From an uncultured Candidatus Saccharibacteria bacterium (lineage in GTDB: Bacteria > Patescibacteriota > Minisyncoccia > Minisyncoccales > GWA2-38-27): a stretch of 50,029 bases of DNA. Positions 7,226-45,891 of this stretch are shown piece by piece. Made by a program: the position numbers and the translations under genes. Under the pieces are notes generated by a model that saw nothing but the letters and a program-made list of their open reading frames with translations, did no database searches and was not told where the DNA came from. Numbering within the stretch: position 1 is the first letter of the stretch; each line of letters starts with the position of its first letter. Location of the stretch: the NCBI GenBank assembly GCA_964509645.1, contig CAZDXV010000001.1, positions 81,890-131,918 on the forward strand. Direction: 5' to 3'.

Positions 7226-7235
7226 CTGTTATTCA

Positions 7236-7273
7236 AACAAAAAACTCTTTGGAAACAAAGGGTTTTTTGTTTG
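7236..7273 (+). terminator. Intrinsic terminator after csp
   Basis: Hairpin aaaaaactctttg-gaaa-caaagggtttttt followed by Ts. Confidence 0.7.
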
Positions 7274-7299
7274 ACAAAAAATAATTATGAGAGTATAAT
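7271..7299 (+). promoter_or_regulatory. Consensus sigma-70 promoter
   Basis: TTGACA (7271-7276), a 17-nt spacer, then TATAAT (7294-7299), about 40 nt upstream of ATG 7340. Confidence 0.6.
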
Positions 7300-7339
7300 A
7301 GAAGCAAGCTGAACATTAAACCCTAATAAGGAGAAAAAG

Positions 7340-7567: not shown

Positions 7568-7578
7568 GTTTATAGGGT

Positions 7579-7607
7579 CTAAGAGACAATCTCTTAGGCC
7601 TTTTTTT
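7579..7607 (+). terminator. Intrinsic terminator
   Basis: ctaagag-acaat-ctcttag hairpin followed by gcc and T7. Confidence 0.7.
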
Positions 7608-7629
7608 ATTCTTTGTTATAATAAAGAAT

Positions 7630-8747: not shown

Positions 8748-8754
8748 AAAAAAG

Positions 8755-8784
8755 AGGCCGGTATGTGTTTTTGCATACCGGCCT
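8755..8784. terminator. Bidirectional terminator hairpin between convergent genes
   Basis: aggccggtatg / cataccggcct 11-bp perfect stem, with an A-run upstream and Ts downstream. Confidence 0.7.
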
Positions 8785-8788
8785 TTGG

Positions 8789-26707: not shown

Positions 26708-26776
26708 TGCCGGGTCATCTAATGGTAGGATACATGGTTCTGGACCATGGTATCTAGGTTCGAGTCCTAGCCCGGC
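26708..26776 (+). tRNA. tRNA-Gln (anticodon CUG)
   Basis: Acceptor GCCGGGT/GCCCGGC, anticodon arm catgg-TTCTGGA-ccatg, T arm ctagg-TTCGAGT-cctag, short 3-bp D stem. CCA is not encoded. Confidence 0.85.
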
Positions 26777-26832
26777 AGCAAACTTGTGATTGGTTCGAGA
26801 GATCGATATAGTTTAAATTCTAATTGAAAAAA

Positions 26833-27360
26833 ATGACAAATTGGACATTTAAGCAAAAATCAGATAATGATTTTATGGATTCTTTTTCTCCAGAAGTAAA
26901 GAAATATCTTGGTATTAAAGACGGGTTTCCCTCTGGAGATCCGGCACGTTGGTTATTAGATTCCTTTCAATTAATTAGTAAAGATTGGTCAAATAGTTAT
27001 GGTGATTATTCTTTTCTTGTGGTGCCAGCCTCTAAGGCTTTAGAATATTGGATTTTTAAAATTGCTGAGGATTTAGGTGTAAATACAAAAACAACAGATA
27101 AGGTTGGTGTAGTGATAGAGCGAATGGAGAAGGAGGTTGGGAAAATAACTAGTTTTCAAAATGAAAAAGAAAAGGAAGTTATTCAAAGAGATATAAATTT
27201 TTTAAAGAATTTTGTGAAAGAATATAGACATAACATTGTGCATTGCAGGAAGAAAATAGAAGGTATAGGTGCAGCAAAGAATAAAATAGCGACGATTTAC
27301 GAGAAGATCAATTCTATTACAGAAAAGTTGATTAATATAGAAAAAATTCATAGGGAATAA
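26833..27360 (+). CDS. Hypothetical protein with a HEPN-like Rx4H motif (candidate RNase/defence protein)
   Basis: 175 aa from ATG 26833. It has a C-terminal EYRHNIVHC (R-x4-H) in a predicted helical protein. It is the first gene after tRNA-Gln in the AT-rich region. Confidence 0.4.
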   Translation: MTNWTFKQKSDNDFMDSFSPEVKKYLGIKDGFPSGDPARWLLDSFQLISKDWSNSYGDYSFLVVPASKALEYWIFKIAEDLGVNTKTTDKVGVVIERMEKEVGKITSFQNEKEKEVIQRDINFLKNFVKEYRHNIVHCRKKIEGIGAAKNKIATIYEKINSITEKLINIEKIHRE

Positions 27361-30723: not shown

Positions 30724-31695
30724 ATGGGTAAACACGAAAGAGAACAAATCGAAAAGGCGGAGAAAATTATTATTAAACTCCTAAATTCTAAAAAAATAAA
30801 TGGTGCTGATAAAAATAATCCTTGGGTCAGCCATACTTTTAATATGGCCGACAGGATCCGAAAGGATTTTTCAAATATTAAAAAAGCCGAGCACTTGGGA
30901 AATCGCTATGACAATACAGGAGATATTCTAATCCTTGCTGATAAAGATGAGTTTTTTATTGAGATAAAAATGAGTGAAACGAAAAAAGGGGTTGGGACTA
31001 AAGCTAATATCGGCCAGGATGCTCTTGCAGATAATAATCTTTTTAAAGGGAACGCTATGAAATGGAGCGATTTTAGAAAAAACAGAAAGCATAATAGGTG
31101 GGTTGATAAATATTTAGACGAATTTATGAGATATCCTAAAAAAGTTCTAAGGATAAAAAACTCTGTTTCAAGAAGGGAAGAGAAAGCTAGGCACTTAAGA
31201 AAATTGCGGAAAAAAGGTAATAAGAAAGCTACAGATATTCTTTTAAGAATTCGTGAAAAAGATAAGAAAGAAAAAATAGATTATTTAAATTATTTAGAAA
31301 GTTTTAAACAAGATAAAGAGAAGATTAGAAGATTTCTTGTTTTAATAATGTTAGGAATTCACAGAAAAGAAACTATTAGAGAATTTATAGAAAATGATAA
31401 TTTTTTGCGGGAAGCCCGGAATCTTTTTGTATATTACAGTAATACCAAAAGAGGAAAAATTATTGTTCGAAGAGAAGATGTAGGAAGCAAGATAAGAAAA
31501 ATACTTAATACTTTTTCGGAATTTAGAATAATTTTTCCTAAAAGGACTACTCATTGTAAATTAATAGGCATAAGAGGGAAAAATCAACAGCCCCTTTTGC
31601 AGATAGTTTTTCACTGGAAAAATATTGCTCAAGGAATTAAAACACCCTGTCTTAATATTTTTGATTTATCAAGTAATATCTTCACTAAATATTAA
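30724..31695 (+). CDS. Putative type II restriction endonuclease (PD-(D/E)XK-like)
   Basis: 323 aa. GDILILADKDEFFIEIKMS fits a D...E-x-K catalytic motif. It converges on, and overlaps by 11 nt, the 3' end of the DNA methyltransferase gene. No closer family recognised. Confidence 0.55.
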   Translation: MGKHEREQIEKAEKIIIKLLNSKKINGADKNNPWVSHTFNMADRIRKDFSNIKKAEHLGNRYDNTGDILILADKDEFFIEIKMSETKKGVGTKANIGQDALADNNLFKGNAMKWSDFRKNRKHNRWVDKYLDEFMRYPKKVLRIKNSVSRREEKARHLRKLRKKGNKKATDILLRIREKDKKEKIDYLNYLESFKQDKEKIRRFLVLIMLGIHRKETIREFIENDNFLREARNLFVYYSNTKRGKIIVRREDVGSKIRKILNTFSEFRIIFPKRTTHCKLIGIRGKNQQPLLQIVFHWKNIAQGIKTPCLNIFDLSSNIFTKY

Positions 31696-33523
31696 TAGGA
31701 AAAAGTTTCTCTAGCTCTGTTTTTGAAATTTGAGTATTTCCTGTAATGTTTTTTATAAATTCTAGTTTTTCCTTAGAGGAAAGTTGACTTGCAATTTTAC
31801 CGAGAGTTATTTTTTTAGAAGCTTTATTTTTTGTAAGTTTCATTCTTATTTGTTTCTGATTAGAAGAAGGAAAAATTACATTTACATGGTTTTCAGCGAT
31901 AAACTTCATTCGCGGAGGTATTACGGCTGCTTTCAACTTGGATGATTTTACAGATCCAGTGATTCTGTTTACTACTATAGCAGGGCCTATATCATAATTA
32001 TTTGTTTTGACATATTGAGGTTTTTTCCTCTCTGCCAATGATAACCTTAGTCCTTTCTCTGTAATATTATGTGCCCAAATCAAAGGGACTCCTTTTTTTG
32101 GATTATTGGTTAGAAGTTCTTTATTTTTATTCCAAACCAATCTTCCTGTTTTTGCCTCAAAATCCAAATCATGGAGCGTGACGCTTTTTTTAAAGGATTT
32201 TTGTAAATATTGAGGGTTTTCGCTAAAAATTAGAATGCCATTTTTTTTGAAAATGTAGTTTCCTTTATTTTTACCCTTTTTAAGGACAATCAACATTGTT
32301 GATTGAAGAGCTTTGTTAAAGAGCTTAGGATCATCTAATACGTGCAAGTATTCAATGTTTGTATTTTCTACTATGTATTCTCTTAATTTGGAAAAATAAG
32401 CTCCGTTGTTCATTGAGGGAGGGACAACATAAGCCAGGCAGCCTCCTTTTTTGAGCCATTTAATTCCTTGATAGATGAATAAACTAAAAATATTTACTCT
32501 TCCGTTGATTATTTCTCTGAATTTATCTTTTATCTCGTCCGATGGAGAAAATTCATAATAGGGGGGATTACCGATTACAAAGTCGTATTTACCGTAGTCT
32601 TCGTTTAATAGGGAATCAGTTTTTTTAATTGTAGCTTCCGGAATAATTTTTCTTGCTATATTAGCTAGGTTTTTATCGATATCCCATCCGAACAGATCAG
32701 GATTTTTGAAGTGTTTTTTAGCTGTGACTAAGAATTCGCCGGTTCCATTGGCAGGATCTAGAATTTTTGGATTGTTTTTATTTTTCGGAAGTTTATCAAT
32801 TAAAGCCTTTCTTATTGATCTGGGGGTGAAATATTGTCCGAATGACTTTCTGTGTTTTATATCTGTTTTTTCCATATATTCTATTGTAGCGTCGTTAAAC
32901 TCTTTTTCTTTTGTTTTTTCTTTTAATTCTTTAAAATTTCGGATGACACTAACAACTTTGCCTTGAATAGCGAGTTCTTTTGTAAAAATGGGTTTGATTT
33001 TGGGATTAGCGGGCTGAAGCCTGAAACCGCCCCTTTCTTTATATATCTTTTTAAGGGTTACTTCGTTTTCATTTATTAAAGCTATAACAGTTTCTTCGTT
33101 TTCAGCAGTTGGCTGTTTTCTAATTACTACAATATCTCCGTTAAAAATTCCTTCCTCAATCATACTATTTCCTTGGACTTTTAAGGCATAATGTCTCCCT
33201 GTTTTTGACAGTTGAGATTTAGAGACTTCTACTGTTTCAGAATCTTCAATAGCCTCAATAGGTTCTCCGGCAGCGATAGTTCCCGCCAGAGGAAGGCTTA
33301 CTAGATTATTTTTTTTATTTCCATTTAATTCTATAGATCTATGCTGGTTTTCGGTTTTTCTCAAGCATCCCTTCTCTTTTAGTGATTCTACGTGTTGGTG
33401 AACCGTAGAAACAGAAGACAACCTAAATTTTCTTTTTATTTCTTCTAAAGAAGGGGAATAATCATTTTCTTCAATATATTCTTCAATATAGTCTAGTATC
33501 TGTTTTTGCCTTTTAGTAAGCAT
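31685..33523 (-). CDS. Fusion protein: full-length LexA repressor (aa 1-197) plus gamma-class N6-adenine DNA methyltransferase (TaqI/Eco57I-like, aa ~215-612)
   Basis: LexA part: the winged HTH (SPSLEEIKRKFRLSSVSTVHQHVESLKEKG), LPLAGTIAAGEP (Ala85-Gly86 cleavage site), VQGNSM (Ser120), VTLKK (Lys158), ending GKVVSVIRNF like the LexA C-terminus. MTase part: FGQYFTP, ILDPANGTGEF (motif I), VIGNPPY (motif IV) and a TaqI_C-like target recognition region. No stop codon occurs between the two parts. Confidence 0.8.
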   Translation of the reverse strand: MLTKRQKQILDYIEEYIEENDYSPSLEEIKRKFRLSSVSTVHQHVESLKEKGCLRKTENQHRSIELNGNKKNNLVSLPLAGTIAAGEPIEAIEDSETVEVSKSQLSKTGRHYALKVQGNSMIEEGIFNGDIVVIRKQPTAENEETVIALINENEVTLKKIYKERGGFRLQPANPKIKPIFTKELAIQGKVVSVIRNFKELKEKTKEKEFNDATIEYMEKTDIKHRKSFGQYFTPRSIRKALIDKLPKNKNNPKILDPANGTGEFLVTAKKHFKNPDLFGWDIDKNLANIARKIIPEATIKKTDSLLNEDYGKYDFVIGNPPYYEFSPSDEIKDKFREIINGRVNIFSLFIYQGIKWLKKGGCLAYVVPPSMNNGAYFSKLREYIVENTNIEYLHVLDDPKLFNKALQSTMLIVLKKGKNKGNYIFKKNGILIFSENPQYLQKSFKKSVTLHDLDFEAKTGRLVWNKNKELLTNNPKKGVPLIWAHNITEKGLRLSLAERKKPQYVKTNNYDIGPAIVVNRITGSVKSSKLKAAVIPPRMKFIAENHVNVIFPSSNQKQIRMKLTKNKASKKITLGKIASQLSSKEKLEFIKNITGNTQISKTELEKLFPINI

Positions 33524-33570
33524 ATTAAGATTATTAACAGCTTAATTTATTATATCATATAATACCGAAA

Positions 33571-33587
33571 GAAAACCGAAAGTTTTC
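33571..33587. promoter_or_regulatory. Palindromic candidate operator GAAAAC-N5-GTTTTC in the LexA-MTase promoter region
   Basis: gaaaaccgaaagttttc lies 48-64 nt upstream of the minus-strand ATG (33523), next to a minus-strand TATAAT (plus-strand attata at about 33550-33555). The form resembles Cheo-type LexA boxes (GAAC-N4-GTTC). Confidence 0.4.
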
Positions 33588-34234
33588 CACATGCTTTTTC
33601 CTTGATTTTATTTCGAGGATCGTGATATATTGGAATAATTAAAAGGGGTTTTAGCCCCGACTACGAAAATTACTCTGTAATCTTCAGCCGGGGTTAACCG
33701 GCTTGTTTAATTTTGTAAATTATATGAGTAAGAAAATAAAACCAAATAAGCCAAAGTTCATGACTGCGGAAAAATCGGTCGATTAGCTTGTAAGTTCTAT
33801 AATTTCATAAGAGAAAAGATTAAGATAGTAGGAGATTCTAAGTAATAAGCTAGATAAAAATGAAAAAAAGTTTAAAAAGTAGAGAACAATTTGTAAAACA
33901 AGTAGCTTATTTTTCTCGGTGCTCAAAAGGGCTTTAAATACGAAGAAATGATTAAATGGATAGATAAAAAACTTAAAAGGGACTGGAATGAGAAAATTAC
34001 TTTACCGAGAGCAAAAATAATAATGCAGAAGAAGTATAAAGCAATAAGCTTAATAATAGATTCTGCAAGGAAATATACTTAAAAAGAACCTAAAATCGGG
34101 AAAAAGGGACAAGTCTCGAATATTCAAGGAATTTGGCTTTTTAATAAAAACTAATTGAAAAAAAAGATTATGAGTTTTAGAAAAGCGGCAATAAAAGTTT
34201 TGGAAAAATTCAAAAGACTTCTTAAAAACTGAAT

Positions 34235-34669
34235 ATGGAACACGTTGCAATAATGAAAAAGTCTTGGGGGTTGCTTCCTAAAATCTTGACAGGAGAAAAA
34301 TCAGTGGAATCTCGTTGGTATAAAAACAGAACTGTTCCTTGGAATAAGATAAAAAGGGGAGATAATGTATATTTTAAGAATTCAGGAGAACCAGTAAAGA
34401 TCAAAACATCTGTTTCGGAGGTTTTACAACTTTCCGAACTTACTCCCGAAGAGGTTAAGAAAATATTATTTAAATACAGGGTCCAAGATGGATTAAAAGC
34501 AGATGAGTTAGATAAATATTATAAATTATTCCGGGATAAAAACTATTGTTTATTGGTATTTCTTAAAAATCCCAAGAAAGTAAAGCCGTTTAAGATAGAT
34601 AAGGCAGGATATGGAACTATGTCTGCCTGGATAACTGTTGATAACATCAAAAAATTAATTAAGAAATAG
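34235..34669 (+). CDS. ASCH-domain protein (PUA-like fold)
   Basis: 144 aa. The N-terminal HVAIMKKSWGLLPKILTGEKSVESRW matches the ASCH pattern (h-h-s-h-k-x-x-h-h-x-x-I-l-x-G-x-K-x-x-E-x-R). Confidence 0.65.
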   Translation: MEHVAIMKKSWGLLPKILTGEKSVESRWYKNRTVPWNKIKRGDNVYFKNSGEPVKIKTSVSEVLQLSELTPEEVKKILFKYRVQDGLKADELDKYYKLFRDKNYCLLVFLKNPKKVKPFKIDKAGYGTMSAWITVDNIKKLIKK

Positions 34670-34942
34670 AATTTATGGGGAAGTTTTCGAAGGAAAATAA
34701 TATTTTTGGGATTAGAAAAAGTTGGCTTTGTAGATTTTTTTTACAAGTTTAACAGCATGTATACAAGTTGCTATACTTTGTATACATTATAAGAAAGATG
34801 TAAACAAACTATTCATGGCAAAAAAGATTAAAATATATTATAAATCTTTTTGGATCATACAAAAGAAATTCGAAAATTAATCAAGAGTAACGGTAGCATC
34901 CATCCCGGGCGAAACTACTTTTAGATCCTCGGCAATAAAAAG

Positions 34943-34971
34943 TCGCCAAAAAGGCGATTTTTTGATAAAAT
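34943..34971 (+). repeat. 29-bp perfect direct repeat, copy 1 (terminator hairpin plus ttgataaaat)
   Basis: tcgccaaaaaggcgattttttgataaaat, identical to 44084-44112. Confidence 0.95.
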
Positions 34972-34979
34972 TATTGTAT

Positions 34980-35606
34980 ATGAGTATAATTTGTATTTTT
35001 GGAGATAGTATTGCTTGGGGAGCTTCTGATTCTGAGAAGGGAGGTTGGGTTGAACGTCTGAAGGTTTTTATGGGGGAAAACTATAACAGCGATGTCTATA
35101 ATCTCGGCATTTCTGGAGATAAGACCCCGAATATTTTAAAAAGATTTAAATTAGAAGCAAAAGCAAGAACAAAAGAAGCAGAAGATGTTGTTTTTATTTT
35201 TGCCATTGGCATCAATGATTCTTGTTTTGTGCGCAGTAAAAATGGTTTAATGATACAGCCGAAAAAATTTAAAGCGAACATAGAAAGGATAATAAAACAA
35301 GCGAAAGCGATAACCCCAAAAATTATTTTTATAGGATTAAATCCGGTTGATGAATCAAAAACCACGCCGATTTCTTGGGACACTGGTAAATCTTATAAAA
35401 ATGAGAATATAAAAAAACATGATGAAATTATAAAACTTATTTGCAAAGAGAAAAAGGTTTATTTTGTTGGAATTTTTAAAAACTGGATAGAGTCAAATTA
35501 TAAAGAATTATTAGAAGATGGCTTGCATCCGAATGTGGCTGGTCACAAAAGAATATTTGAAGCAGTGCAGAGTTTTTTAATTAAGAAAAAAATAATTAAA
35601 ATTTAG
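34980..35606 (+). CDS. SGNH/GDSL-family hydrolase
   Basis: The N-terminus MSIICIFGDSIAWG (GDS block I), GINDS (block III) and DGLHPN (block V, DxxH). ATG 34980 is preferred over TTG 34962. Confidence 0.8.
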   Translation: MSIICIFGDSIAWGASDSEKGGWVERLKVFMGENYNSDVYNLGISGDKTPNILKRFKLEAKARTKEAEDVVFIFAIGINDSCFVRSKNGLMIQPKKFKANIERIIKQAKAITPKIIFIGLNPVDESKTTPISWDTGKSYKNENIKKHDEIIKLICKEKKVYFVGIFKNWIESNYKELLEDGLHPNVAGHKRIFEAVQSFLIKKKIIKI

Positions 35607-35990
35607 CCAATTAATTTTGGAAAAAATAACCCAAAATTTAAAAATTAATTTAAAAATCCCACCGGCAGAGCAAAGTACATTACGAAGGGAGTAAAAAATA
35701 TAGAAAAGAAAAATAATAAGGAATTTTTTCATGTATTGTACCCTCCGCAATGTATTCTGCAAAATAACCTTGAAAATTATTAAAATTTTTAATATACTGA
35801 ACAATATAATAATAACCAAATTCAAAAAAGGTCAATGGAATTCTAAATATAAAACAGAAATAATTGTCTTATTAATACAATAAAAAGACATAAGCAAAAA
35901 TTAAAGATTAACGAAAAACAGCTTGGTGTTATAAAATGTATATCTTGAACAAAAGTATCCTAACAATTAAAAAATAAGGAAATAAATAGA

Positions 35991-37322
35991 ATGGAAAGAA
36001 TTTTAAGCGCAGAAATAACAAAACATATAGGCAAAACGGTAAAGCTCTCTGGCTGGGTTGATTCCATAAGGTCTCATGGAAAGATTGTTTTTATTGATCT
36101 TCGTGATAGGAGTGGAATTGCACAATTGGTTTGCGTTCCACAAAATAAAGAAGTTTACGAACTTGTCAAAAAGGTTCATCCCGAGTGGGTAATAACAGTG
36201 ACTGGATTTGTATCTAAGCGACCACCAAAAATGATAAACCCAAAGATAAAAACTGGAGAAGTGGAAATTTCTTCAAAAGAAATAAAGATACTTTCCGAAG
36301 CCGAAACTCCGCCTATTCCAGTATGCCAAGAAGAAATTCAAGAATCTAACATCGATAAAAGAATGGGTTGGAGATGGCTTGATTTGAGGAGATCAGAAAA
36401 ACGCCTAATTTTTGAAGTATGGACAACTATGGAACAGGGATGGCGGGAATATCTCATGAAACAAGAATATATCGAAATATATTCGCCCAAACTAATGAAC
36501 GCCCCCAGTGAATCGGGAGCCGAGCTATTCGAAGTTGATTATTTCGATCAAAAAGCCTATTTAGCTCAATCTCCTCAATTCTATAAGCAAATGGCAATGG
36601 CTGCTGGTTTCGAAAAAGTATTTGAATTTGCTCCTGCATTCAGGGCAGACCCCTCTTTTACCTCAAGACATTGCACAGAATTTACATCTTATGATGCAGA
36701 GATTTCTTTTATAGAATCTCATCAAGATGTTATGCATGCTTTAGAAGAAATGATTGTTGCTACTCTTTCTGCTGTCGAGAAAAAACACGGCCAAGAAATT
36801 GAGCAGGCTTATGGAAGAAAATTAGTTGTTCCTACAATTCCATTTCCTCAAGTTACAATGATGCAGGCAAAAAAAATACTTCAAGAATTAGGGATACCCA
36901 GCAAAGAAAGAGGAGATCTTAGTCCCGAAGAAGAAAGAGCTCTTAGCGAGTATATATTAAAAGAAAAAGGGCATGAATTTGTATTTGTGACGGAATATCC
37001 ATCGACGGTTCGCCCCTTTTATCATATGAGACTAGAAACTGACCCAAGTCTTACTAAAAGCTTTGATCTTCTATGGAATGGATTGGAAATTACCACTGGC
37101 GCACAAAGGGAACATAGATACAATATTCTAAAAAAGCAAGCTCAAGAAAAGGGTATAGATTTTGAACAGATTCGTAACTATTTGAATTTTTTTAGATATG
37201 GCTGTCCTCCTCATGGGGGATTCGGACTTGGCCCTTCACGAATGTTGATGAAAATTCTGAACCTGGATAATATACGAGAAACTACATTTATTTATCGAGG
37301 CGTGAAAAGACTAACTCCTTAA
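35991..37322 (+). CDS. aspS: Aspartyl-tRNA synthetase, archaeal/eukaryote-type short form (class IIb)
   Basis: 443 aa. N-terminal OB anticodon-binding domain (GWVDSIRSHGKIVFIDLRDRSG), LAQSPQFYKQ, motif 2 FRADPSFTSRHCTEFTSYDAE, motif 3 GGFGLGPSRMLM, C-terminal RLTP. Asp versus Asn specificity is judged from the QSPQ block only. Confidence 0.75.
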   Translation: MERILSAEITKHIGKTVKLSGWVDSIRSHGKIVFIDLRDRSGIAQLVCVPQNKEVYELVKKVHPEWVITVTGFVSKRPPKMINPKIKTGEVEISSKEIKILSEAETPPIPVCQEEIQESNIDKRMGWRWLDLRRSEKRLIFEVWTTMEQGWREYLMKQEYIEIYSPKLMNAPSESGAELFEVDYFDQKAYLAQSPQFYKQMAMAAGFEKVFEFAPAFRADPSFTSRHCTEFTSYDAEISFIESHQDVMHALEEMIVATLSAVEKKHGQEIEQAYGRKLVVPTIPFPQVTMMQAKKILQELGIPSKERGDLSPEEERALSEYILKEKGHEFVFVTEYPSTVRPFYHMRLETDPSLTKSFDLLWNGLEITTGAQREHRYNILKKQAQEKGIDFEQIRNYLNFFRYGCPPHGGFGLGPSRMLMKILNLDNIRETTFIYRGVKRLTP

Positions 37323-37335
37323 CTCAAAGTTAAAT

Positions 37336-37366
37336 AACCTGCGATATCTCCCGCAGGTTATTTTTT
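37336..37366 (+). terminator. Intrinsic terminator after aspS
   Basis: aacctgcg-atatctcc-cgcaggtt followed by a and T6. Confidence 0.75.
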
Positions 37367-37396
37367 AAGTTCAAGGAAGTTGTTAAATAATTAAAA

Positions 37397-38614
37397 ATGC
37401 GTTATAATGCGAAACAAATGAAAGGCAAAAATACCATAAGATTTCCGAATTATTTAAACGGCAAAACTATTACCGTGCCCTTTAATAACGACTTTAAACT
37501 TATCTCTAAGTTAGGAGAATTATTAAAACCTCCTTTGCCATTTGAAATATCTATTTATTTTGCACCTAATCCTTTAATATCTACTGCAGGAAGGCGATTT
37601 CCTGGTTATGAAAATTTTATAGAAAAGCATAAAAAATTTCAAAATAATAAATTCAATCAGATATTAATTAAAGCATTAAAGGAAGCAAAAAGTTATGGAT
37701 TTACAACTAATCTATTATTAAATAATATTTTACTAGGAATGGCTCATGACAATAAAACACTTGTTCGTGATATTAAAAAAATTCAGAATTATCTAGAAAG
37801 ATTATACAAAACAGGATATTTAGACAAAGTGACTATCGGTAATCCTTATTTATTAGAACTTATCAATTGGAATAAACTAAAAAATCTTGAGATAAAGACA
37901 TCTGTTAATTTTCAAATTAAAAATGCGAAAACAATTGAGATATTAAATATACTTTCTGATAATTGGTTAGAGAAAAATAGATTAACCACCATTGAAATAC
38001 AAAAAGATTTATTACGAGATTTAGAAATATTAAAAAAAATAAAGAAAACAATAAAAGACAAAATAAAACTCTCGATTATTATTAATGAAGGATGTATAAC
38101 TAGTTGTCCATATCAATTGGTTCATCAAATTCATGCTTTCACTACACCCATAGATGCGTTACCCTGTTTTAATAAAGATTTCAAATTTGCTATTGCGAAG
38201 TGTAAATATATTACACGTTCTGCTCCTTGGAAAATCTTTGATTCAAATTGGATTTTGCCGGGACATCTAAAATATTATAAAAATTTAATTGATGAATTTA
38301 AACTAACTGATAGAAATGATTCAACAGAAATAATTTTAAATACTGTAAGAGCTTATATCAGTGGCCAATATGACAAAAAGAATTTATGCAAATTGATAAG
38401 TTTATTGAATATGGAGGAGTTTTTATTTCCAGAATCTGTTCTTGGAAAAAACTTTTTTAAAAAAATTACTTCGGATAGAAAACCCAGTGATAAGTATTAT
38501 AAAAAACTTTGGGAAAAACTAGTAATTTATAATAAAAACAAGGGTGTGAAAGGCGGTATAAAAATCAAAGGTTTACACAAAAGTAATTTACACCATTTTA
38601 TTGGGAATTATTAA
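37397..38614 (+). CDS. Cys-rich hypothetical protein, possibly a peptidase-U32-like TIM barrel (Fe-S?)
   Basis: 405 aa. The order of blocks (NLLLNN..., KVTIGNPYLLELI, LEIKTSVNFQIKN, IIINEGCITSCPY, later CKY) resembles the U32 family layout, but the PROSITE U32 signature is not matched exactly. No CxxxCxxC. Confidence 0.3.
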   Translation: MRYNAKQMKGKNTIRFPNYLNGKTITVPFNNDFKLISKLGELLKPPLPFEISIYFAPNPLISTAGRRFPGYENFIEKHKKFQNNKFNQILIKALKEAKSYGFTTNLLLNNILLGMAHDNKTLVRDIKKIQNYLERLYKTGYLDKVTIGNPYLLELINWNKLKNLEIKTSVNFQIKNAKTIEILNILSDNWLEKNRLTTIEIQKDLLRDLEILKKIKKTIKDKIKLSIIINEGCITSCPYQLVHQIHAFTTPIDALPCFNKDFKFAIAKCKYITRSAPWKIFDSNWILPGHLKYYKNLIDEFKLTDRNDSTEIILNTVRAYISGQYDKKNLCKLISLLNMEEFLFPESVLGKNFFKKITSDRKPSDKYYKKLWEKLVIYNKNKGVKGGIKIKGLHKSNLHHFIGNY

Positions 38615-38636
38615 TATCTAAAATATCTATGTTGCA

Positions 38637-39968
38637 ATGTTGATTGATAGTTGTGCCAAAATTAGTAAAATATCTAAGACACCTATTAAAAAAAAGGTGG
38701 ATTATATTATAAATATAGAATCTAATCCTTCAAAATGGGATAGAATTTTGTCTGTTAACTATAAAAATATTTTTATAGCAATAGGTATTTCACCGGAAAG
38801 AGCGATTATTTACAATAATGAAATAGAAAAAAAATTATTAAAATTGATTAAAAAAAATAAAATAATTGCTATAGGAGTGATCGGATTAGATTATCGTAAT
38901 AAAAAAGCGTCTAAAAATATTCAAAAAAAGATTTTTCAAAGACAACTTGTTTTAGCAAAAGAAAACAATTTACCAGTAATCATATCTTGCCTAAACTCCT
39001 ATCAAGATTGCTATGAGATTTTAAAAAAGATTTATAAAGATAAAGATAAAATAAAAGGAGTTATAAATTTTAGTTCTGAAAATGAGAAACAAATTAAATC
39101 TTTTATCGATTTCGGCATGTTTGTTTCTTTTTCTGGCGATATTATATCTAGAAAAAATAAAAAAGCAGCAAAAATTATACCCTTAATTCCTCAGAATAAA
39201 TTATTGATACGAAGTCTAAATTTTAAAAATAAGAATGAAGACTATAGTAAACTTATTTCTAGCATTAAAAAATCCTTGGAGAAAATTGCTTTAATAAGAA
39301 AAAAAATTAGCGTTGAGGATATTGCTAGAATAGTTAGTTATAACGCTATTTCCCTTTTTCGATTACCTGTTGAGTTAAAAGATAAATACACATACAAAAT
39401 AAGAAATTCTCTTTATATCAATTTAACCAATAGATGTACTAATAAATGTGATTTTTGTCCGCGCCTTGAAGAGCCAGTCGTTAAAGGATATTACTTAGAA
39501 TTAAAAAAAGAACCTACAGCTAAAGAAGTAATCAAGGAAATAGATGATCCTAAAAAATTTGACGAAATTGTTTTTTGTGGCTATGGAGAACCAACAATAC
39601 GACTGAGAACAATGAAAAAAATAGCTAAATGGATTAAAAAAAATGGCGGTAAGACAAGGCTTAATACTAATGGGCTTGGCAGTCTTATCGCGGGTTATAA
39701 TGTAGTTCCTCAACTAAAAGGATTATTTGATACAATTTCTGTAAGTTTAAATTTTCACAATAAAAATTTATATTTAAAACATTGTCATCCTATTTTTGGT
39801 GAAAAAACATGGAAGGGAATATTAACATTTATAGAAGAAACCAAAAAAGTCACTCCTAAAGTTGTTCTGACTGTGGTCGAGAAATATAAAGATGTAGACG
39901 TAAATAAATGCCAAAAAATAGCAAATAGATTAAAAGTTGATCTCAGAAAAAGAACTTATTATGAGTAA
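38637..39968 (+). CDS. Fusion: degenerate TatD-like domain (aa ~1-240) plus radical SAM domain (aa ~255-443, 'TatD-associated radical SAM' type)
   Basis: The TatD-like blocks are present but substituted: LIDSCAK (vs DxHxH), AIGVIGLDY (vs GExGLD), PVIISCL (vs PvviHxR), VINFSS (vs HCF), LLIRSLN (vs lLlETDxP). C-terminal: LYINLTNRCTNKCDFC (CxxxCxxC), VFCGYGEPT, RLNTNG. Confidence 0.65.
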   Translation: MLIDSCAKISKISKTPIKKKVDYIINIESNPSKWDRILSVNYKNIFIAIGISPERAIIYNNEIEKKLLKLIKKNKIIAIGVIGLDYRNKKASKNIQKKIFQRQLVLAKENNLPVIISCLNSYQDCYEILKKIYKDKDKIKGVINFSSENEKQIKSFIDFGMFVSFSGDIISRKNKKAAKIIPLIPQNKLLIRSLNFKNKNEDYSKLISSIKKSLEKIALIRKKISVEDIARIVSYNAISLFRLPVELKDKYTYKIRNSLYINLTNRCTNKCDFCPRLEEPVVKGYYLELKKEPTAKEVIKEIDDPKKFDEIVFCGYGEPTIRLRTMKKIAKWIKKNGGKTRLNTNGLGSLIAGYNVVPQLKGLFDTISVSLNFHNKNLYLKHCHPIFGEKTWKGILTFIEETKKVTPKVVLTVVEKYKDVDVNKCQKIANRLKVDLRKRTYYE

Positions 39969-40803
39969 AAAGGAAATAAATATCCCCTTTGCCGCAATTC
40001 AATTAACCAGTAGATGTAATTTAAATTGTGATTTCTGTTTTCGACGTCTTAACATAGATGAAGTTTCTTTTAATCAAATAAAGGAGGTCATAAAAAAATT
40101 AGCAGAATATAACACAACAACTTTAGTGTTGTCAGGAGGTGAGCCTCTTTTAGTTAAGGATATTAAAAAAATATTAAAATTTGCGAGAAATTTAGGAATA
40201 AAAACCGTTCTTCAATCAAATGGAATTTTATTGAAGAGAAAACTAAACTCTTTCGCCCCTTACATTAATTGGATTTCCCTTTCATTAGATGGTTATAATG
40301 AGCAAACTAATGCAACAATGAGAAGCTCTAAACAACTTAGAGCCACTATAGAAGTTCTTCCTTTGATTAAAAAACATAATATCAAAATAAAATTAGGAAC
40401 AGTTGTAACTAAGAAAAATTATAAGAATATTAAAGACATCGGAAAATTAATTCAACCGTATGTCACAATCTGGAAGTTATATCAATTCTATCCGAGAGCG
40501 CATACTTGTGCTCATAAAAATAAAAATCAGTTTATTATTGATGATCGCACTTTTTTGAAAATAGCTAAACAAATCCGTCGTGCCTTCCCTAAGCTATCCA
40601 TTTCAACTCATTCGGTTAAAGAATTTGATAAAAGCCCGTGTCTTTTAATGAATCCAAATGGAGATGTTTATATTACTCAAAATGCCAAAGATTACTTTAT
40701 TGGGAATTTAGTCAAAAAGCCAGATAAATTTGTTGAAAATTACAGAAAAATGAATATTTTCTCAGAGATAAATAAAAACTTTAATAAAACTTATAAAGAT
40801 TAA
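39961..40803 (+). CDS. Small radical SAM enzyme (no SPASM domain; viperin/MoaA-like core)
   Basis: LTSRCNLNCDFCF (CxxxCxxC), LSGGEPLL, LQSNG, SLSLDG, KLGTVV, then IWKLYQFYP, which resembles the viperin RWKVFQ block. ATG 39961 overlaps the upstream stop (ATGAGTAA). Confidence 0.7.
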   Translation: MSKKEINIPFAAIQLTSRCNLNCDFCFRRLNIDEVSFNQIKEVIKKLAEYNTTTLVLSGGEPLLVKDIKKILKFARNLGIKTVLQSNGILLKRKLNSFAPYINWISLSLDGYNEQTNATMRSSKQLRATIEVLPLIKKHNIKIKLGTVVTKKNYKNIKDIGKLIQPYVTIWKLYQFYPRAHTCAHKNKNQFIIDDRTFLKIAKQIRRAFPKLSISTHSVKEFDKSPCLLMNPNGDVYITQNAKDYFIGNLVKKPDKFVENYRKMNIFSEINKNFNKTYKD

Positions 40804-40807
40804 AAAT

Positions 40808-41440
40808 ATGAAAAATCGTGGCCAATACGACAGTGAATATAAAAATTGTTCTTGTTTCTGGGGATCTGATCCAAGCAAGTATGTCAAATTAATACCCAAT
40901 TATATTTCCTCGGGGCGAGTTCTTGATTTAGGAGCTGGAGAAGGTAAAAATAGTTTTTATCTTGCTTCATTGGGATTTAGGGTAGTAGCAATTGATGTGT
41001 CTTTATACGCTATCAGAAATTTTATCAATAGAGCGATTAAGGAAAGCGATAATAAGAAATCAAAAGTTGAAAACATTGATATAATATATGCTGATATAAC
41101 AGATTGGCCTCTGGCTGATAAATTCGATGTTGTAATATCTTACGGACTTTTACATTGTTTAAATTCCGAAAAAGAAATAGCCTTGCTAATAAAAAAAATG
41201 AAAGTAGCAACCAAAAAAGAGGGGATAAATGTAATTTGCACTTTTACTAATGAACTAGGAATACCCAAAATACAAGACTATCTCAATCCGACGCTCTTGT
41301 CTAAAACGGCTTTAAAGAAAAAACATTATAATGATTGGCAAATACTTAATTACGAGTCTGATATAATTGAACATAAGCATCCTACTTTTAACAAATTACA
41401 TAAACATAGCGTTTGTAGAATGATAGCAAGAAAAAAATGA
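40808..41440 (+). CDS. Class I SAM-dependent methyltransferase, TehB-like
   Basis: VLDLGAGEGKNSFYLASLGFRVVAIDVS (motif I plus an acidic residue at the end of beta-2), DVVISYGLLHCL. Confidence 0.75.
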   Translation: MKNRGQYDSEYKNCSCFWGSDPSKYVKLIPNYISSGRVLDLGAGEGKNSFYLASLGFRVVAIDVSLYAIRNFINRAIKESDNKKSKVENIDIIYADITDWPLADKFDVVISYGLLHCLNSEKEIALLIKKMKVATKKEGINVICTFTNELGIPKIQDYLNPTLLSKTALKKKHYNDWQILNYESDIIEHKHPTFNKLHKHSVCRMIARKK

Positions 41441-41444
41441 ATTA

Positions 41445-42929
41445 ATGTTGAAAATTATCAATAATATTAAGAAATCTATTAAGGAGAGTTTTTTTGATGA
41501 TAAATCTTCGCGGGAAATAAGGAAATGGATTATAGGTAATATAAAATTTAAGAATTCTATCTCTTATAGAGAGGCTTCTTATGCCGTAATGAACCCTACT
41601 GATTTTTGTCCAGTTGGTTGTCCTTATTGTATGTACTCTTCACATAAATTTAAAAAATCTAGAATTAGTAAAAAGCTAATGCAATCTTTCGTTAAAATTG
41701 CTAATCAAGCAAAATTAAAAATGCTTGTATTTTCCGGAGGTGGGGAACCGTTTGAAAATCTAGAGCAAATGTTACAAGCAATTGAAAACATTGAATCTCT
41801 AAAAGATGTAATCATAATAAGTAGTGGTTATTTTGCTAAAAATCCTAAAACTACCAAAGATATCCTAGATAAAATTTATAATGTTGCTAATATTGGAAGG
41901 CAAAGAAAAAATTTTGGAAAAGTGACTATTACCTTAAGAGTTAGCCGAGATTCTTCTCAGTGTAAAGTTATTCCGCTCGAAAATTTAGTTAATATAATAA
42001 ATTATACAATTAGGAAAAACGACTCTTCAAAAATTCGTATTTTAATAAGAACAATATTAAGTTACAGGGAAAATGAGGATTTAAAATTAGCCAAAAAATT
42101 AAATTTTAATCTATTACCCCAGAAAGATAAAAAGAATATTTATAAAAATTTACCTATTATTGATGGACTTCCGACAAGGTGGCTAATAGATAAAAAAGAA
42201 AAAATAGAAATTCCTATAATTTATAAACCATTATATTTTATGGGAAGAGCTAAAAATAAAAATGCTCGAAATAGATATTCTTTATGGAAAATTATTAAAT
42301 CAGAGAAGAGATCAGGTACTTCCTTTAATCCATGCATAAGAGGGCCTAAGGGTGAAGGGCACAATTATTACGAAACTATTCTAAATGGTTATTATTTTTG
42401 GAAAAGAAATATTAAAAAAATAATATATGATACTCCAAAATATAAAACCAGAAAGGAATTAGCACTATATGTTCCAGCGTCTGGCAATATTTTAATTAAT
42501 AATGGAGTACCCGATATTGCTCCGAATCTTAATAAAATAAAAAGTTGGCCCCAATTTTTAAAAATAATCTATAATGATCCTGTTCAAAGATTATTAATTG
42601 AGAAAGGCCCTTTTTTTATTAAATCTATTGCCGAAGAAGTTGAAGAGAATCTAGCTACAAAAATAGAAAAAACTAATTTTGTGTTTGCAGTTTCCTTATT
42701 TAGCTTAAAAACATCATCATTAAGATTATATATTACCTTGCGTGCATTACAATATTATTATAAAAATAATCAAATAAAAATTAATAAGTCTTTGATTAGA
42801 AAATTAGTAGAAACAGATAGAAAGTATTATATAAATTTATATAATAAATGGAAAAATCGCTTTGGTAATAAAGTAATTGAAAAACCATCTATTGATCCTA
42901 TAACTGGAGATACTTCAAGTCTTTTTTAA
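41445..42929 (+). CDS. Large radical SAM protein with a long uncharacterised C-terminal extension
   Basis: NPTDFCPVGCPYCMY (CxxxCxxC) and FSGGGEPF. 494 aa. No second Cys cluster typical of SPASM or twitch domains is visible. Confidence 0.65.
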   Translation: MLKIINNIKKSIKESFFDDKSSREIRKWIIGNIKFKNSISYREASYAVMNPTDFCPVGCPYCMYSSHKFKKSRISKKLMQSFVKIANQAKLKMLVFSGGGEPFENLEQMLQAIENIESLKDVIIISSGYFAKNPKTTKDILDKIYNVANIGRQRKNFGKVTITLRVSRDSSQCKVIPLENLVNIINYTIRKNDSSKIRILIRTILSYRENEDLKLAKKLNFNLLPQKDKKNIYKNLPIIDGLPTRWLIDKKEKIEIPIIYKPLYFMGRAKNKNARNRYSLWKIIKSEKRSGTSFNPCIRGPKGEGHNYYETILNGYYFWKRNIKKIIYDTPKYKTRKELALYVPASGNILINNGVPDIAPNLNKIKSWPQFLKIIYNDPVQRLLIEKGPFFIKSIAEEVEENLATKIEKTNFVFAVSLFSLKTSSLRLYITLRALQYYYKNNQIKINKSLIRKLVETDRKYYINLYNKWKNRFGNKVIEKPSIDPITGDTSSLF

Positions 42930-43008
42930 AAAATATTTAAAGGATATGATTTACTAAAGAGAAAACCAATACAAGATTTACAGGATTTTTTAAAAACATT
43001 AAAACACG

Positions 43009-44016
43009 ATGTATAAAATTAGACCCAATTATAAAATTAATATTAGTAATACCGATATTAACAAAATAGAAAAAATTATTTTCAGGGAAATTGGGTTTAA
43101 AATTAAATTAATAAAAGATAATTCTAATTTAAGAGGTAAAATTTTTAAAACATCTTTTTCAAAGAGAAAACAATATTTTTTAAAGCTTGAACCAGTTAAT
43201 TATTATTCTGAAGCAGAAATTTTAGAAGGAATTCGGAAAATATCAGATCTGCCAGTGCCTAAAGTTATTTGGTATAAAACACGGATATGTAAAGATTATC
43301 ACGCTTTTCTTCTTGAAAGATTGTCGGGTCAAACATTAAACAAAGTTCTGCTTGCGGATAAAAAAAGTTCTCATCATATAGCTAAATTGATAGGGCAAAT
43401 TCTGGCTAAAATTCATTCATTTAAATTTGATACACAAGGATTGCTTAACCGAAAAGGGGAATTAAGAAAAATCTCAGAATCTATCGATAATTTAGTTGGT
43501 GAAAATCTAAAATATTCTTTCGGAATCATTAATGAAAATTATAAATGGTGTAAGAAAAATAAAGTTGACATCAAGGAAAGTTTTTTGTACTCATTTGATA
43601 TTATTAAGAGATTAAAAAAATCAAACAATAAAAAACTTTGTCTTCTGCATGGAGATCTGAAACCATCACATTTTTTCATCAGCAAGGAGAATAGTTACAG
43701 TTATAATGTTTCTGGAATTATTGATTGGGAAGAGTCAATAATTGGAAATCCAGCGTTAGATATAGCTCATTTATTTTTCCAATCCGAGCCCGAAGATCTA
43801 ATTTTTTTAAAAAACGTGTGGAATTCTTATAAAAAATCAACTGATTTTATTCCAACAATACACTGCATCTCAAATTATTTTTTACTGACTTTTTTAATTC
43901 ATTTATCGTATTATGCCGAATATAATATAAAACTACCGGACAGAATGTATCAATTGACAAAAAATCTCAATAGCATTGATACTATAAACAAGTTTTTTAA
44001 CAGAATTTTAGAATAA
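43009..44016 (+). CDS. APH/ChoK-family phosphotransferase (kinase)
   Basis: LCLLHGDLKPSHFFI (Brenner HxDxxxxN-like catalytic loop) and IIDWEESIIGNPALDIAH (DxE/DFG-equivalent). Confidence 0.75.
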   Translation: MYKIRPNYKINISNTDINKIEKIIFREIGFKIKLIKDNSNLRGKIFKTSFSKRKQYFLKLEPVNYYSEAEILEGIRKISDLPVPKVIWYKTRICKDYHAFLLERLSGQTLNKVLLADKKSSHHIAKLIGQILAKIHSFKFDTQGLLNRKGELRKISESIDNLVGENLKYSFGIINENYKWCKKNKVDIKESFLYSFDIIKRLKKSNNKKLCLLHGDLKPSHFFISKENSYSYNVSGIIDWEESIIGNPALDIAHLFFQSEPEDLIFLKNVWNSYKKSTDFIPTIHCISNYFLLTFLIHLSYYAEYNIKLPDRMYQLTKNLNSIDTINKFFNRILE

Positions 44017-44083
44017 ATATATATGCAGAAAATTCAGACAAAAACAAGGAAATATATTTAAAAGAAACCTAAGAGATTTAAAA

Positions 44084-44112
44084 TCGCCAAAAAGGCGATT
44101 TTTTGATAAAAT
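44084..44112 (+). repeat. 29-bp perfect direct repeat, copy 2
   Basis: tcgccaaaaaggcgattttttgataaaat, identical to 34943-34971 and 9141 bp downstream of it. Confidence 0.95.
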
Positions 44113-44124
44113 AAATCAAGAAAC

Positions 44125-44241
44125 ATGAAAAAATATTCTTGTAAAAGAGCCAAAAAAGGAAAAACTGCATATCGGACGCCAAGCAAGTTTATTTACAAGA
44201 AAGCTTTAAAGTCCAAAAAGAATAAAGTTAGAAAAAAATAG
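44125..44241 (+). CDS. Possible 38-aa highly basic peptide
   Basis: MKKYSCKRAKKGKTAYRTPSKFIYKKALKSKKNKVRKK. It is below the ORF-track cutoff, has no convincing SD, and lies between repeat copy 2 and the helicase gene. Confidence 0.2.
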   Translation: MKKYSCKRAKKGKTAYRTPSKFIYKKALKSKKNKVRKK

Positions 44242-44262
44242 CGGAAGGTTAACATTTAAGTT

Positions 44263-45891
44263 ATGACTCAAGAACAGGCATTAAATATATTAAAGCTTGG
44301 ATATAATGTATTTTTAACAGGCGCTCCCGGAAGCGGGAAAACTTTTCTGTTAAATAAATACATTGATTATTTAAAAGATAACGGAAAAGGCGCAGCAATT
44401 ACAGCTTCTACGGGTATTGCCGCTACTCATATGGGAGGAGTAACAATACATTCTTTTACGGGTATGGGCATTAAAGAAAGCTTAAATGATGGAGATATTA
44501 GGAAATTACAGAGAAGGCCTTATCTTAGAAAAAGATTTCGGAAAACCAATGTTCTTGTAATTGATGAAATTTCAATGCTTCATAGCTTTCAATTTGACTT
44601 GATTGACCGGATTTGTCGGGCTTTTAAAAACAGATTGAAGCCCTTTGGCGGAATGCAGGTTGTTTGTTCCGGGGATTTGTTTCAGCTTCCTCCAGTTCAA
44701 AAAACAAGGGAAACAGCTCATTTTGTTGTTGAGTCGGAAGCATGGAAGAATATGGGTATAAAGGTTTGCTACTTAGAAGGGCAGTATCGCCAGAAAGGAG
44801 GAGACTTATCTCTTTTGCTTAACTGTATTCGCAATAATGCAGTTGAAGAGGCAAGGGCGATATTGTTTAATGTAAAGCGCGAAAAAGGCGCTTTCTCTAT
44901 TGCTCCGACAAAATTATACACCCATAATATAGATGTGGATATTATTAATAATGCTGAATTGAGCAAAATAGACGAAAAGGAATTCGTCTATTATATGCAT
45001 TCAAGGGGCAATGAAAAGATTGCTTCTTTTTTGCGAAAGAATTGTTTGGCTCCCGAAGAATTAGTGCTTAAAAGGGGAGCTAAGGTAATGTTTGTAAAAA
45101 ATAACTTTGATGAAGGTTATGTTAACGGCACCTTGGGTAAAGTGATAGACTTTGACGAAGGAGGTCTGCCGGTTGTAAAAACATTTTCTGGCAATCATAT
45201 TGTCGCTGACTCTGCAAGATGGACGCTTGAAGAAGACGGGCAAGTTAAAGCTGAGGTCAGTCAAATTCCTCTTCGCCCTGCCTGGGCGATAACAGTCCAT
45301 AAAAGCCAGGGTATGAATCTTGATGCTGCGGAAATTGATCTTTCTAAGTCCTTTATTAGGGGTATGGGCTATGTTGCCTTATCTCGATTAAGACAATTTT
45401 CCGGATTAAAGCTTTTAGGGATTAACGAAACAGCTCTTTTAATAAATCAAGAGATATTAGAATTAGATAAAACCTTTAAGCAAATGTCTAAAAAAGCAGT
45501 TAAAGAGCTTGAGAGTTTCTCTTATGAGAAAAAAGAAAAAGAGCAAAGAAAGTTTCTGTCTTCTTTGCCTGAAAGTGGAAAGGGCAAAAGGAAAAATCAT
45601 ATTTCTACCCACAAACAAACCAAATCTCTTATTGAGGATAAATTATCCATAAAAGAGATTGCCAAAAAGAGAGGTCTGAATGAAAATACTATTTTGCAGC
45701 ATTTAGAGAAAATGGTAGCTAACGGAGAAAGGATTGATTTAGAATACTTAAAAATGCCAGAAGAGCGTTTTGAGCAGATAAAAACGGCATTTGAAGAGAT
45801 AGGAGATTATAAATTAAAACCGGTGCGGGAAGTTCTTGGACAAGGTTTTTCTTATCAAGAATTAAGATTAGCTCGCTTATTTATCCAATAA
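44263..45891 (+). CDS. PIF1/RecD-like SF1B DNA helicase with a C-terminal HTH/HRDC-like tail
   Basis: VFLTGAPGSGKTF (Walker A), VLVIDEISM (Walker B), GDLFQLPPV, ITVHKSQG. The C-terminal LSIKEIAKKRGLNENTILQHLEKM block is typical of Pif1-family helix-turn-helix tails. Confidence 0.85.
   Translation: MTQEQALNILKLGYNVFLTGAPGSGKTFLLNKYIDYLKDNGKGAAITASTGIAATHMGGVTIHSFTGMGIKESLNDGDIRKLQRRPYLRKRFRKTNVLVIDEISMLHSFQFDLIDRICRAFKNRLKPFGGMQVVCSGDLFQLPPVQKTRETAHFVVESEAWKNMGIKVCYLEGQYRQKGGDLSLLLNCIRNNAVEEARAILFNVKREKGAFSIAPTKLYTHNIDVDIINNAELSKIDEKEFVYYMHSRGNEKIASFLRKNCLAPEELVLKRGAKVMFVKNNFDEGYVNGTLGKVIDFDEGGLPVVKTFSGNHIVADSARWTLEEDGQVKAEVSQIPLRPAWAITVHKSQGMNLDAAEIDLSKSFIRGMGYVALSRLRQFSGLKLLGINETALLINQEILELDKTFKQMSKKAVKELESFSYEKKEKEQRKFLSSLPESGKGKRKNHISTHKQTKSLIEDKLSIKEIAKKRGLNENTILQHLEKMVANGERIDLEYLKMPEERFEQIKTAFEEIGDYKLKPVREVLGQGFSYQELRLARLFIQ

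Follow-up and report, generated by a model that had tools for sequence, protein, structure and literature searches.

A 9.1-kb block flanked by two identical copies of a 29-nt sequence was found in a 50,029-nt stretch of DNA (contig CAZDXV010000001.1, positions 81,890 to 131,918, forward strand; hereafter the window) of a Parcubacteria-type Patescibacterium from a microbial-mat metagenome. The block is present in one strain and absent from its neighbours. The repeat reads as a conserved transcription module that at the same time offers portable homology, and module-borne recombination probably inserted the foreign segment at a module already resident before a Pif1 helicase gene, recombination between the two copies removing it again. 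The original prediction, which was made from the letters of the window and described an inserted segment bounded by repeats, was right in substance.

The 29-mer (TCGCCAAAAAGGCGATTTTTTGATAAAAT) lies on the + strand at 34943-34971 (copy M1) and with the same sequence at 44084-44112 (+; copy M2), a spacing of 9141 bp from start to start. These two copies were the only hits in the window at up to three mismatches, and the 29-mer had no hit in 100 dinucleotide-preserving shuffles of the window, which bears out the earlier claims that identical repeats bracket 9.1 kb and that the match is unlikely to be due to chance. With one mismatch (G34942 vs A44083) the repeat lengthens to 33 nt, 34939-34971 vs 44080-44112. 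The ATG of a GDSL-family gene lies 8 nt downstream of M1, and the ATG of a 38-codon open reading frame (ORF) lies 12 nt downstream of M2, followed by the Pif1 gene. A decayed older copy of the block tail and module (..AACCTAAAATCGGGAAAAAGGGA), without the T-tract and without the -10 box, was found at 34066-34110 (+); the block tail itself (44020-44083, +) resembles the left flank at 34040-34110 (ATGCAGAA ... CAAGGAAATATAYTTAAAA..AACCTAA; an 89% repeat family). The decayed duplicate of tail and module therefore suggests that the same spot was rearranged earlier too.

Alleles of the locus were compared in Logan contigs of the source run (X1), of two other samples from the same study (X2 and X3), and of X4, an aquatic metagenome sampled in an unrelated study. 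The single-copy empty site that the original prediction had anticipated for relatives was found in X2, X3, and X4 and in minor haplotypes of X1; these alleles run from the left flank through one module copy into the right flank and skip exactly 9141 bp. The X2 contig (1365 bp, depth 8.0) covers 34159-34938 and then resumes at 44080-44387, and the X3 contig has the same joint (34938 to 44080) at depth 6.5. The loose ends of the X2 and X3 contigs match the opposite flank letter for letter, and both contigs are about 2% divergent from the window, indicating a sister strain. A relative in X4, about 5% divergent, has the joint 34942 to 44084, with 29 nt fitting either side. The ambiguity of the joint (both = 3 in X2 and X3, both = 29 in X4) places it inside the repeat identity. 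Words of the block were recovered at 99% in X1 and at 7-9% in X2 and X3, where block sequence occurs in short contigs only, at a depth of about 2.5 and identical to the window; these contigs represent the window strain as a minority.

Filled and empty forms coexist in X1, the left flank of which has two haplotypes, C34927/G34942 and T34927/A34942. The word G+29mer leads into the block or, at depth 2, directly into the right flank, and the block end and the A-haplotype both lead to AAAA+29mer+A and then into the right flank. Each filled-form junction has a single k-mer path with no other neighbours, which speaks against an assembly chimera as the origin of the filled form; where the Logan contigs of X1 are broken, the coexisting alleles branch. 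The depth in X1 is 8.1-8.25 for the block and 9.25 and 9.5 for the flanks. A donor-derived tract to the right of M2 was rejected, as the divergence between the window and the sister strain is lowest beside M2, with 2 differences in 308 nt.

Judged from its letters, the 29-mer reads as an intrinsic terminator whose T-run enters an extended -10 promoter, the mRNA of which would be leaderless or nearly so. The hairpin TCGCC-AAAAA-GGCGA has five G/C-rich pairs with an A-U extension and is followed by T6, which corresponds to the G+C-rich stem-loop and U-run of an intrinsic terminator; the RNA fold has a predicted energy of -13.7 kcal/mol at M1 and -11.1 kcal/mol at M2 (z about -3.8). The extended -10 element of M1 (TGATAAAAT) corresponds to a TGnTAnAAT box, of which the TG plus T, A, and the final T were almost invariant in position-wise counts over 22 non-exact copies, and a promoter scan called M1 as TCGCCA-17-TAAAAT with TG. 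The original prediction had regarded the TTGATAAAAT beyond the terminator as extra sequence; it is not arbitrary and forms the putative TG-extended -10 box. In the same 22 copies the stem, the T-tract, the TG, and T-A-x-A-A-T were nearly invariant, with variation limited to four places, namely the loop (8-10), A15 to G, the N of TGn, and the third -10 base. The A15 to G variants preserve pairing, as a U.G pair, on the sense strand only. An ATG was located 6-9 nt past the -10 box in 29/54 distinct module instances; the commonest distance, 6 nt, is that of the expected transcription start, which fits a leaderless-type promoter. On this reading M1 would drive the GDSL gene, and M2 the 38-codon ORF and Pif1. 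A look through RNA runs found none that contains the locus. A related promoter is present in the window at 3858 (T-run/TGGTAAAAT/7-nt/ATG), but without the conserved TCGCC hairpin. Rfam at the gathering threshold returned three tRNAs and nothing else in the window, and at an E-value threshold a single sub-threshold match, to the terminator part of an Aggregatibacter small RNA, in the array loci described below. Other identities were tried and rejected: the 11-6-11 dyad of a dif/Xer site is absent from the module; the palindrome of a LexA operator is missing upstream of the LexA gene itself, and the genes behind modules are mutually unrelated; and the module is far too rare for a DNA uptake sequence.

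As a conserved putative transcription module the 29-mer is recurrent across Patescibacteria rather than restricted to one locus. When JGI metagenome contigs were scanned for it, with A or G at position 26, it was present in 35 contigs from many metagenomes, representing about 26 unrelated sequence contexts, and a fuzzy search of 1.5 Mb of collected DNA gave the 22 further non-exact copies, with 0 for eight shuffled patterns. No module hit was obtained in a scan of viral contigs, and no additional copy was apparent in X1, which has little weight as bare 29-nt matches may escape the search. The original prediction had held that the bracketing would be coincidental if the 29-mer were a common terminator module scattered throughout the genome; the module does recur in many Patescibacteria genomes and contexts, but the bracketing is still meaningful. 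Another organism of the mat carries the module (31 nt, 1 mismatch) on Logan contigs of 917 bp in X2 and 6874 bp in X3, where it stands directly after ..GCGCGGTTCGAGCGGTCCGCTCAAAG, another tRNA-like motif, between unrelated flanks. No description of the module or of its arrays was found in a shallow literature search.

The strain-specific block spans 34972-44083 (+; 9,112 bp) and with one module copy makes up the 9,141-bp unit missing from the empty-site alleles. Its gene content agrees with the earlier description, as does the position of Pif1 just outside copy 2. The first gene encodes the GDSL-family hydrolase (34980-35606, +; PF13472, 3.8e-26) and is followed by a non-discriminating-type aspartyl-tRNA synthetase (AspRS) of 443 aa (35991-37322, +), the type usual in this lineage, with 60-68% identity to AspRS of Nealsonbacteria and Staskawiczbacteria and 88% to the closest. 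A strong intrinsic terminator (37332-37363, +; -16.6 kcal/mol) follows AspRS, and the remainder is a six-gene operon (37397-44016, +) with weak U32-like, TatD-radical SAM, radical SAM, TehB methyltransferase, radical SAM, and APH kinase genes. Pfam detected no recombinase domain and no transposase in any of the eight block proteins, as the original prediction had noted for integrases and transposases; no tyrosine or serine integrase was found by Pfam in the eight block proteins, Pif1, and five proteins of the left variable region, or by eye in the remaining window ORFs. None of the 25 longest inverted-repeat pairs listed connects the block ends. The profile across the boundaries, which had been suggested earlier as a check, places the block below the core: the G+C content (GC) is 0.286 in the block, 0.315 from tRNA-Gln to M1, 0.356 to the right of the block, and 0.377 in the core, and the GC at third codon positions (GC3) is 0.17-0.27 in the block (0.27 in AspRS, 0.17-0.25 in the operon) and 0.31-0.36 in core genes. 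The operon has the lowest GC in the window, 0.269.

AspRS followed by the same operon was also found in the relatives L082 (AspRS 88% identity) and L083 (loci of related genomes are given as L numbers), in L082 in a different chromosomal context adjoining an IS481-type transposase. Because the AspRS is of the ordinary type and the AspRS-operon cluster is conserved in a relative, the block is not exotic DNA but cargo typical of the lineage, derived from a relative further away. The conserved link between AspRS and the operon may point to a tRNA or nucleotide modification pathway. In another relative (the loci in question are L082 10001-18280, L083, and L084) two more paralogues of class IIb synthetases stand behind AspRS, and after them come a HIT-family gene and an unannotated 397-aa gene that resembles the U32-like gene in size.

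A gain of the block by insertion in the window lineage is favoured over its loss elsewhere, because the empty state is present in lineages at both 2% and 5% divergence and because the block genes are absent within 10 kb upstream of Pif1 in 80 relatives (0/80 representative genomes); the 3.0-kb tRNA-Gln-Pif1 interval of L059 also has no block gene. The distance between LexA and Pif1 favours gain as well: LexA (-) lies 0.6-4.9 kb upstream of Pif1 in L012, L019, L075, and L003, and the empty form of the window (1.6 kb) falls in this range, whereas the filled form (10.7 kb) falls outside it. The GC3 of the block is foreign to the core, and the sister populations hold no copy of the AspRS-operon stretch at >=80% identity, both of which argue for gain. 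The search behind the latter used 35600-38700 (AspRS and the first operon gene) and yielded, in X2 and X3, only ~20-70-nt fragments besides the short window-identical contigs; it missed the long contig of X1 itself and is taken solely to show that X2 and X3 lack a diverged copy. The event would be recent, because M1 equals M2 at all six positions that vary among other copies. Pif1 synteny over the 80 representatives and the three closest homologues (75-78%) was too shuffled to supply a close outgroup and revealed no more than the nearness of LexA to Pif1 and the lack of block genes. No exact match to the Pif1 protein was on record.

In the proposed mechanism, one module copy would normally stand before Pif1, at the far edge of a variable region starting at tRNA-Gln. 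An incoming segment consisting of a module, the GDSL gene, AspRS, and the radical-SAM operon, in a circular or linear intermediate, would recombine through its module with the resident module by a Campbell-type single crossover with a circle, or by an equivalent homology-anchored event, and such a crossover would necessarily leave one identical module on each side of the block. The joining would thus rely on 29-33 bp of identity, not on a dedicated enzyme. Recombination between M1 and M2 would, in reverse, excise the block and restore the one-copy site. In either state the hairpin and T-run would end upstream transcription, while the same T-run would enter the extended -10 that starts the leaderless or near-leaderless mRNA of the next gene. 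The locus has what is expected of repeat-mediated homologous insertion or deletion, namely identical direct repeats, a one-copy product, and a joint inside the identity; the left-flank spacer before M1 is the same in filled and empty alleles, and the joint therefore lies within the 33-nt repeat. The depth-2 31-mer G+29mer+A in X1 joins the left marker of the filled haplotype to the right flank and so fits occasional loss of the block, in keeping with the earlier suggestion of a recombination substrate able to excise it. No site-specific enzyme is needed, and none was found; homology-driven recombination explains the window equally well as attL/attR chemistry. Of the attL/attR-type duplication proposed originally, it stands that the block is present or absent as a unit, but the 29-mer is a conserved module rather than a private att pair, and no integrase, circle junction, or inverted terminal repeats were seen.

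Several points weigh against insertion through module homology. At 29-33 bp, the shared sequence is close to the minimum that RecA-type recombination needs in E. coli. At position -1 the filled allele has G and all major empty alleles have A, which requires a single-nucleotide polymorphism or a crossover just left of the module. The junction search suggested earlier recovered the deletion-type word at depth 2 but not the circle junction A+29mer+T (..GATTTAAAA + 29-mer + TATTGTAT..), which was not seen in the Logan contigs of X1-X3, a weak negative as contigs drop rare forms. The allele data as a whole are Logan contigs, not reads, with rare forms dropped and noisy depths for short unitigs: the left-junction flow in X1 (3.7 minus 2) is below the 8.1 of the block. 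A donor locus, with a module on either side of the block, was not found, and L082, the closest AspRS-operon cluster, is without the module and without the GDSL gene. The AspRS is of the ordinary housekeeping type of the lineage, so that the strain either has two AspRS or has lost the original.

Arrays of modules in related Parcubacteria raise the alternative that the module is one arm of the recombination site of a dedicated cassette system, with the recombinase encoded elsewhere and the block being a large cassette. Arrays of 3-6 modules, all in gene orientation, were found in L105 (1-9770), L133, L127 (6867-10905), L130 (6995-10903), L111, L115, L116, L107, and L089, with one module before each gene or gene pair. 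In L127, L101, and L112 the row starts directly behind tRNA-Gln, which there follows prfB-ftsE-ftsX as it does in the window. Most array modules are preceded by GGTTCYAAC...CCCCAGC (or ...GGGAGC), which is like the 3' half of tRNA-Gln; in L114 and L096 it is a clean tRNA 3' half. The cargo consists of small enzymes (HAD, NUDIX, DUF218, deaminase, RNase T, NYN) and a reverse transcriptase. A 980-bp unit of module, DUF218 gene, and tRNA-like motif is shared at 94-99% identity by L105, L133, L108, and L114 with differing neighbours, and L105 and L133, 99.25% identical over 6.1 kb, diverge exactly after CCCCAGC. The array units thus look like cassette shuffling, and an undescribed Parcubacteria cassette system, with module-headed and tRNA-Gln-3'-half-tailed single-gene units, an out-of-array recombinase, and the block as large cargo, is offered as a tentative idea. 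Such a system is a possible but doubtful explanation for the window, where the joint lies inside the 33-nt repeat and not at a tRNA-like motif, the spacer left of M1 being unchanged, and where the right end of the block has no tRNA-like motif and no second tRNA-Gln half was found at up to 7 substitutions. Moreover, neither the window nor the neighbourhood of the arrays was seen to carry a tyrosine or serine recombinase, and the IS481-type transposases in L105 and L082 were the sole candidates; modules are also found in conserved synteny without breakpoints, e.g., L107 vs L110; and the repeats of the arrays could merely provide 70 nt of homology for ordinary recombination.

It is improbable that the block is ancestral and that recombination or slippage between two old, independent modules deleted it to give the one-copy alleles. 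Deletions classically arise between direct repeats of this length (29-33 bp), the G+29mer+A word suggests that deletions happen, and AspRS with the radical-SAM operon is a conserved linked cluster in relatives; an ancestral block would, however, require at least two lineages (2% and 5% divergent) to have undergone one and the same precise deletion, or a tree contradicting the divergences, and block genes were seen next to Pif1 in no outgroup. A deletion would also take AspRS, of which no other copy at >=80% identity exists in the sister populations, the GC3 of the block is foreign to the core, and two old independent modules would rarely match at all six variable positions. Least credible of all is a coincidence or assembly chimera, in which a misjoined block lies between two ordinary copies of a module common in the group. 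The Logan contigs of X1 do break at both copies, but the coexisting filled and empty forms account for these breaks, and each filled-form junction offers one k-mer path without an alternative neighbour. The depth of the block agrees with that of the flanks in X1 and is about 2.5 in X2 and X3, where the empty form has 6.5-8, and in three data sets the boundary of the indel coincides exactly with the repeat. Insertion by module-borne recombination remains the preferred reading of the window.

The locus shares with repeat-mediated deletion and Campbell integration the identical direct repeats, the one-copy empty allele, a segment that needs no recombinase gene, and a low-depth hybrid recombinant in which the left-flank marker is joined to the right flank. 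It differs from the usual events of this kind in that the repeat is a probably functional, lineage-wide module, not a leftover of the event or an insertion-sequence copy, and in that 29-33 bp is very short for a 9-kb span. With such a module as the repeat, the genome carries ready-made portable homology before its genes. A target-site duplication by a transposon was rejected, as the 29-bp repeat is a pre-existing conserved module and the block has no transposase. Neisseria Correia elements and uptake-sequence terminators are intergenic repeats that carry promoters or terminators. The module resembles Correia-type elements in being a short conserved intergenic element that is both transcription signal and recombination substrate, but it has no terminal inverted repeats or TA duplication, a far lower copy number, and a fixed distance to the start codon. 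The related arrays share with integron arrays the co-oriented single-gene units, a conserved 70-75-nt repeat between them, and the same unit behind different neighbours; unlike in integrons, each array unit brings its own promoter, there is no platform promoter, and the array is anchored on a tRNA gene. No IntI with attI was seen in the window or the array loci (ORF lists and selected Pfam scans), and an integron attC was rejected since the 74-nt composite, read by eye, has no R''/R' pair (RYYYAAC...GTTRRRY). Tycheposon islands of Prochlorococcus are tRNA-anchored flexible genomic islands with successive integrations (bioRxiv 10.1101/2020.12.28.424599). The shared features are a variable region that starts at a tRNA (here tRNA-Gln) between conserved flanks, coexisting strains that differ by whole units, partial-tRNA-like repeats between cargo units in the related genomes, and small cargo of metabolic or defence type. 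Of partial tRNA copies flanking units, the related loci show a clean tRNA 3' half in L114 and L096, with arrays starting at tRNA-Gln in L127 and L101, while the window shows no second tRNA-Gln half. The newest insertion in the window is at the end of the region away from the tRNA, where promoter modules instead of partial tRNAs form its boundaries. In further contrast to tycheposons, no tyrosine recombinase, replication/packaging gene, or other hallmark gene was seen (Pfam on selected proteins, ORF lists), and a unit in the related arrays is a single gene of 0.6-2 kb that has a promoter of its own.

Patescibacteria have tiny genomes with few recognisable mobile elements, and gene exchange between their strains is poorly understood. 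The window provides a nucleotide-exact natural example of a 9-kb segment with a tRNA synthetase and a radical-SAM operon that is present in one strain and absent from its neighbours. If modules are general landing pads, as the arrays suggest, every module-bearing gene would be portable with its own promoter, and this would explain the shuffled gene order around conserved anchors in the group. The module also supplies a testable promoter/terminator consensus for mostly unculturable organisms.

The first 26.7 kb of the window (1-26.7 kb) hold core genes, including secA, secDF, pgk, lepA, prfB, ftsE, and ftsX. The tRNA-Gln(ctg) gene (26708-26779, +) lies behind prfB-ftsE-ftsX and is the left anchor of the variable, lower-GC region that ends at M2; the same prfB-ftsE-ftsX-tRNA-Gln frame is present in L059, L127, and L112. 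In L059 (Staskawiczbacteria) the order is tRNA-Gly, tRNA-Thr, prfB, ftsE, ftsX, and tRNA-Gln, with Pif1 3.0 kb further on. Between tRNA-Gln and Pif1 there are 3.0 kb in L059, 8.3 kb in strains with the empty site, and 17.5 kb in the window, and these size differences mark the interval as a variable region. The conserved right flank (44125-45891, +) consists of the 38-codon ORF (44125-44241), which is very basic, followed by the Pif1+HTH_40 helicase gene (44263-45891). The small ORF is in frame with Pif1, but two stop codons lie between them, and the idea that it forms the N-terminus of Pif1 was therefore rejected; the homologues closest to Pif1 have 20-57 residues more. One X4 relative has 15 nt in place of 44116-44261.

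Within the variable region, the first gene past tRNA-Gln (26824-27360) gives a match to the RnlA/RNase LS toxin DNA-binding domain (PF19034, 6.6e-07), which hints at a defence or toxin gene heading the region. Between the two, at 26780-26812, is a conserved spacer (TCGAGAGAYCGAGATACA) that follows tRNA-Gln or the tRNA-like motif in several genomes (L101, L112, L092, L127); the window version, TCGAGAGATCGATATAG at 26795, has no module after it. A LexA-methyltransferase fusion (31685-33523, -) combines a full LexA (DNA-binding domain and S24 peptidase) with an Eco57I-type N6-adenine DNA methyltransferase and could be a restriction-modification system wired to DNA damage. Its neighbour at 30724-31695 (+) encodes a 323-aa protein without a Pfam match, possibly a nuclease partner, and a 623-aa protein of L019 matches the fusion over its first ~280 residues, which correspond to the LexA part plus the beginning of the methyltransferase. 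A second strain-variable spot was noted at 33545-34158, where the X2 and X3 sister contigs diverge from the window left of about 34147 and X1 has two haplotypes across a 44-codon ORF region. Between a 144-aa ORF and M1 is a 270-nt non-coding stretch (34670-34942) with a good promoter-like site at 34749-34777 (TTAACA-17-TATACT with TG) and a weak match to the tRNA-like motif at 34897-34922. Its product may be a small RNA or a peptide of 21 codons, with the M1 hairpin as the end. In L059, a Y-family polymerase (dinB-like) gene at 7228-8900, between tRNA-Gln and Pif1, looks interrupted by an insertion-sequence transposase, as read by eye from the translations.

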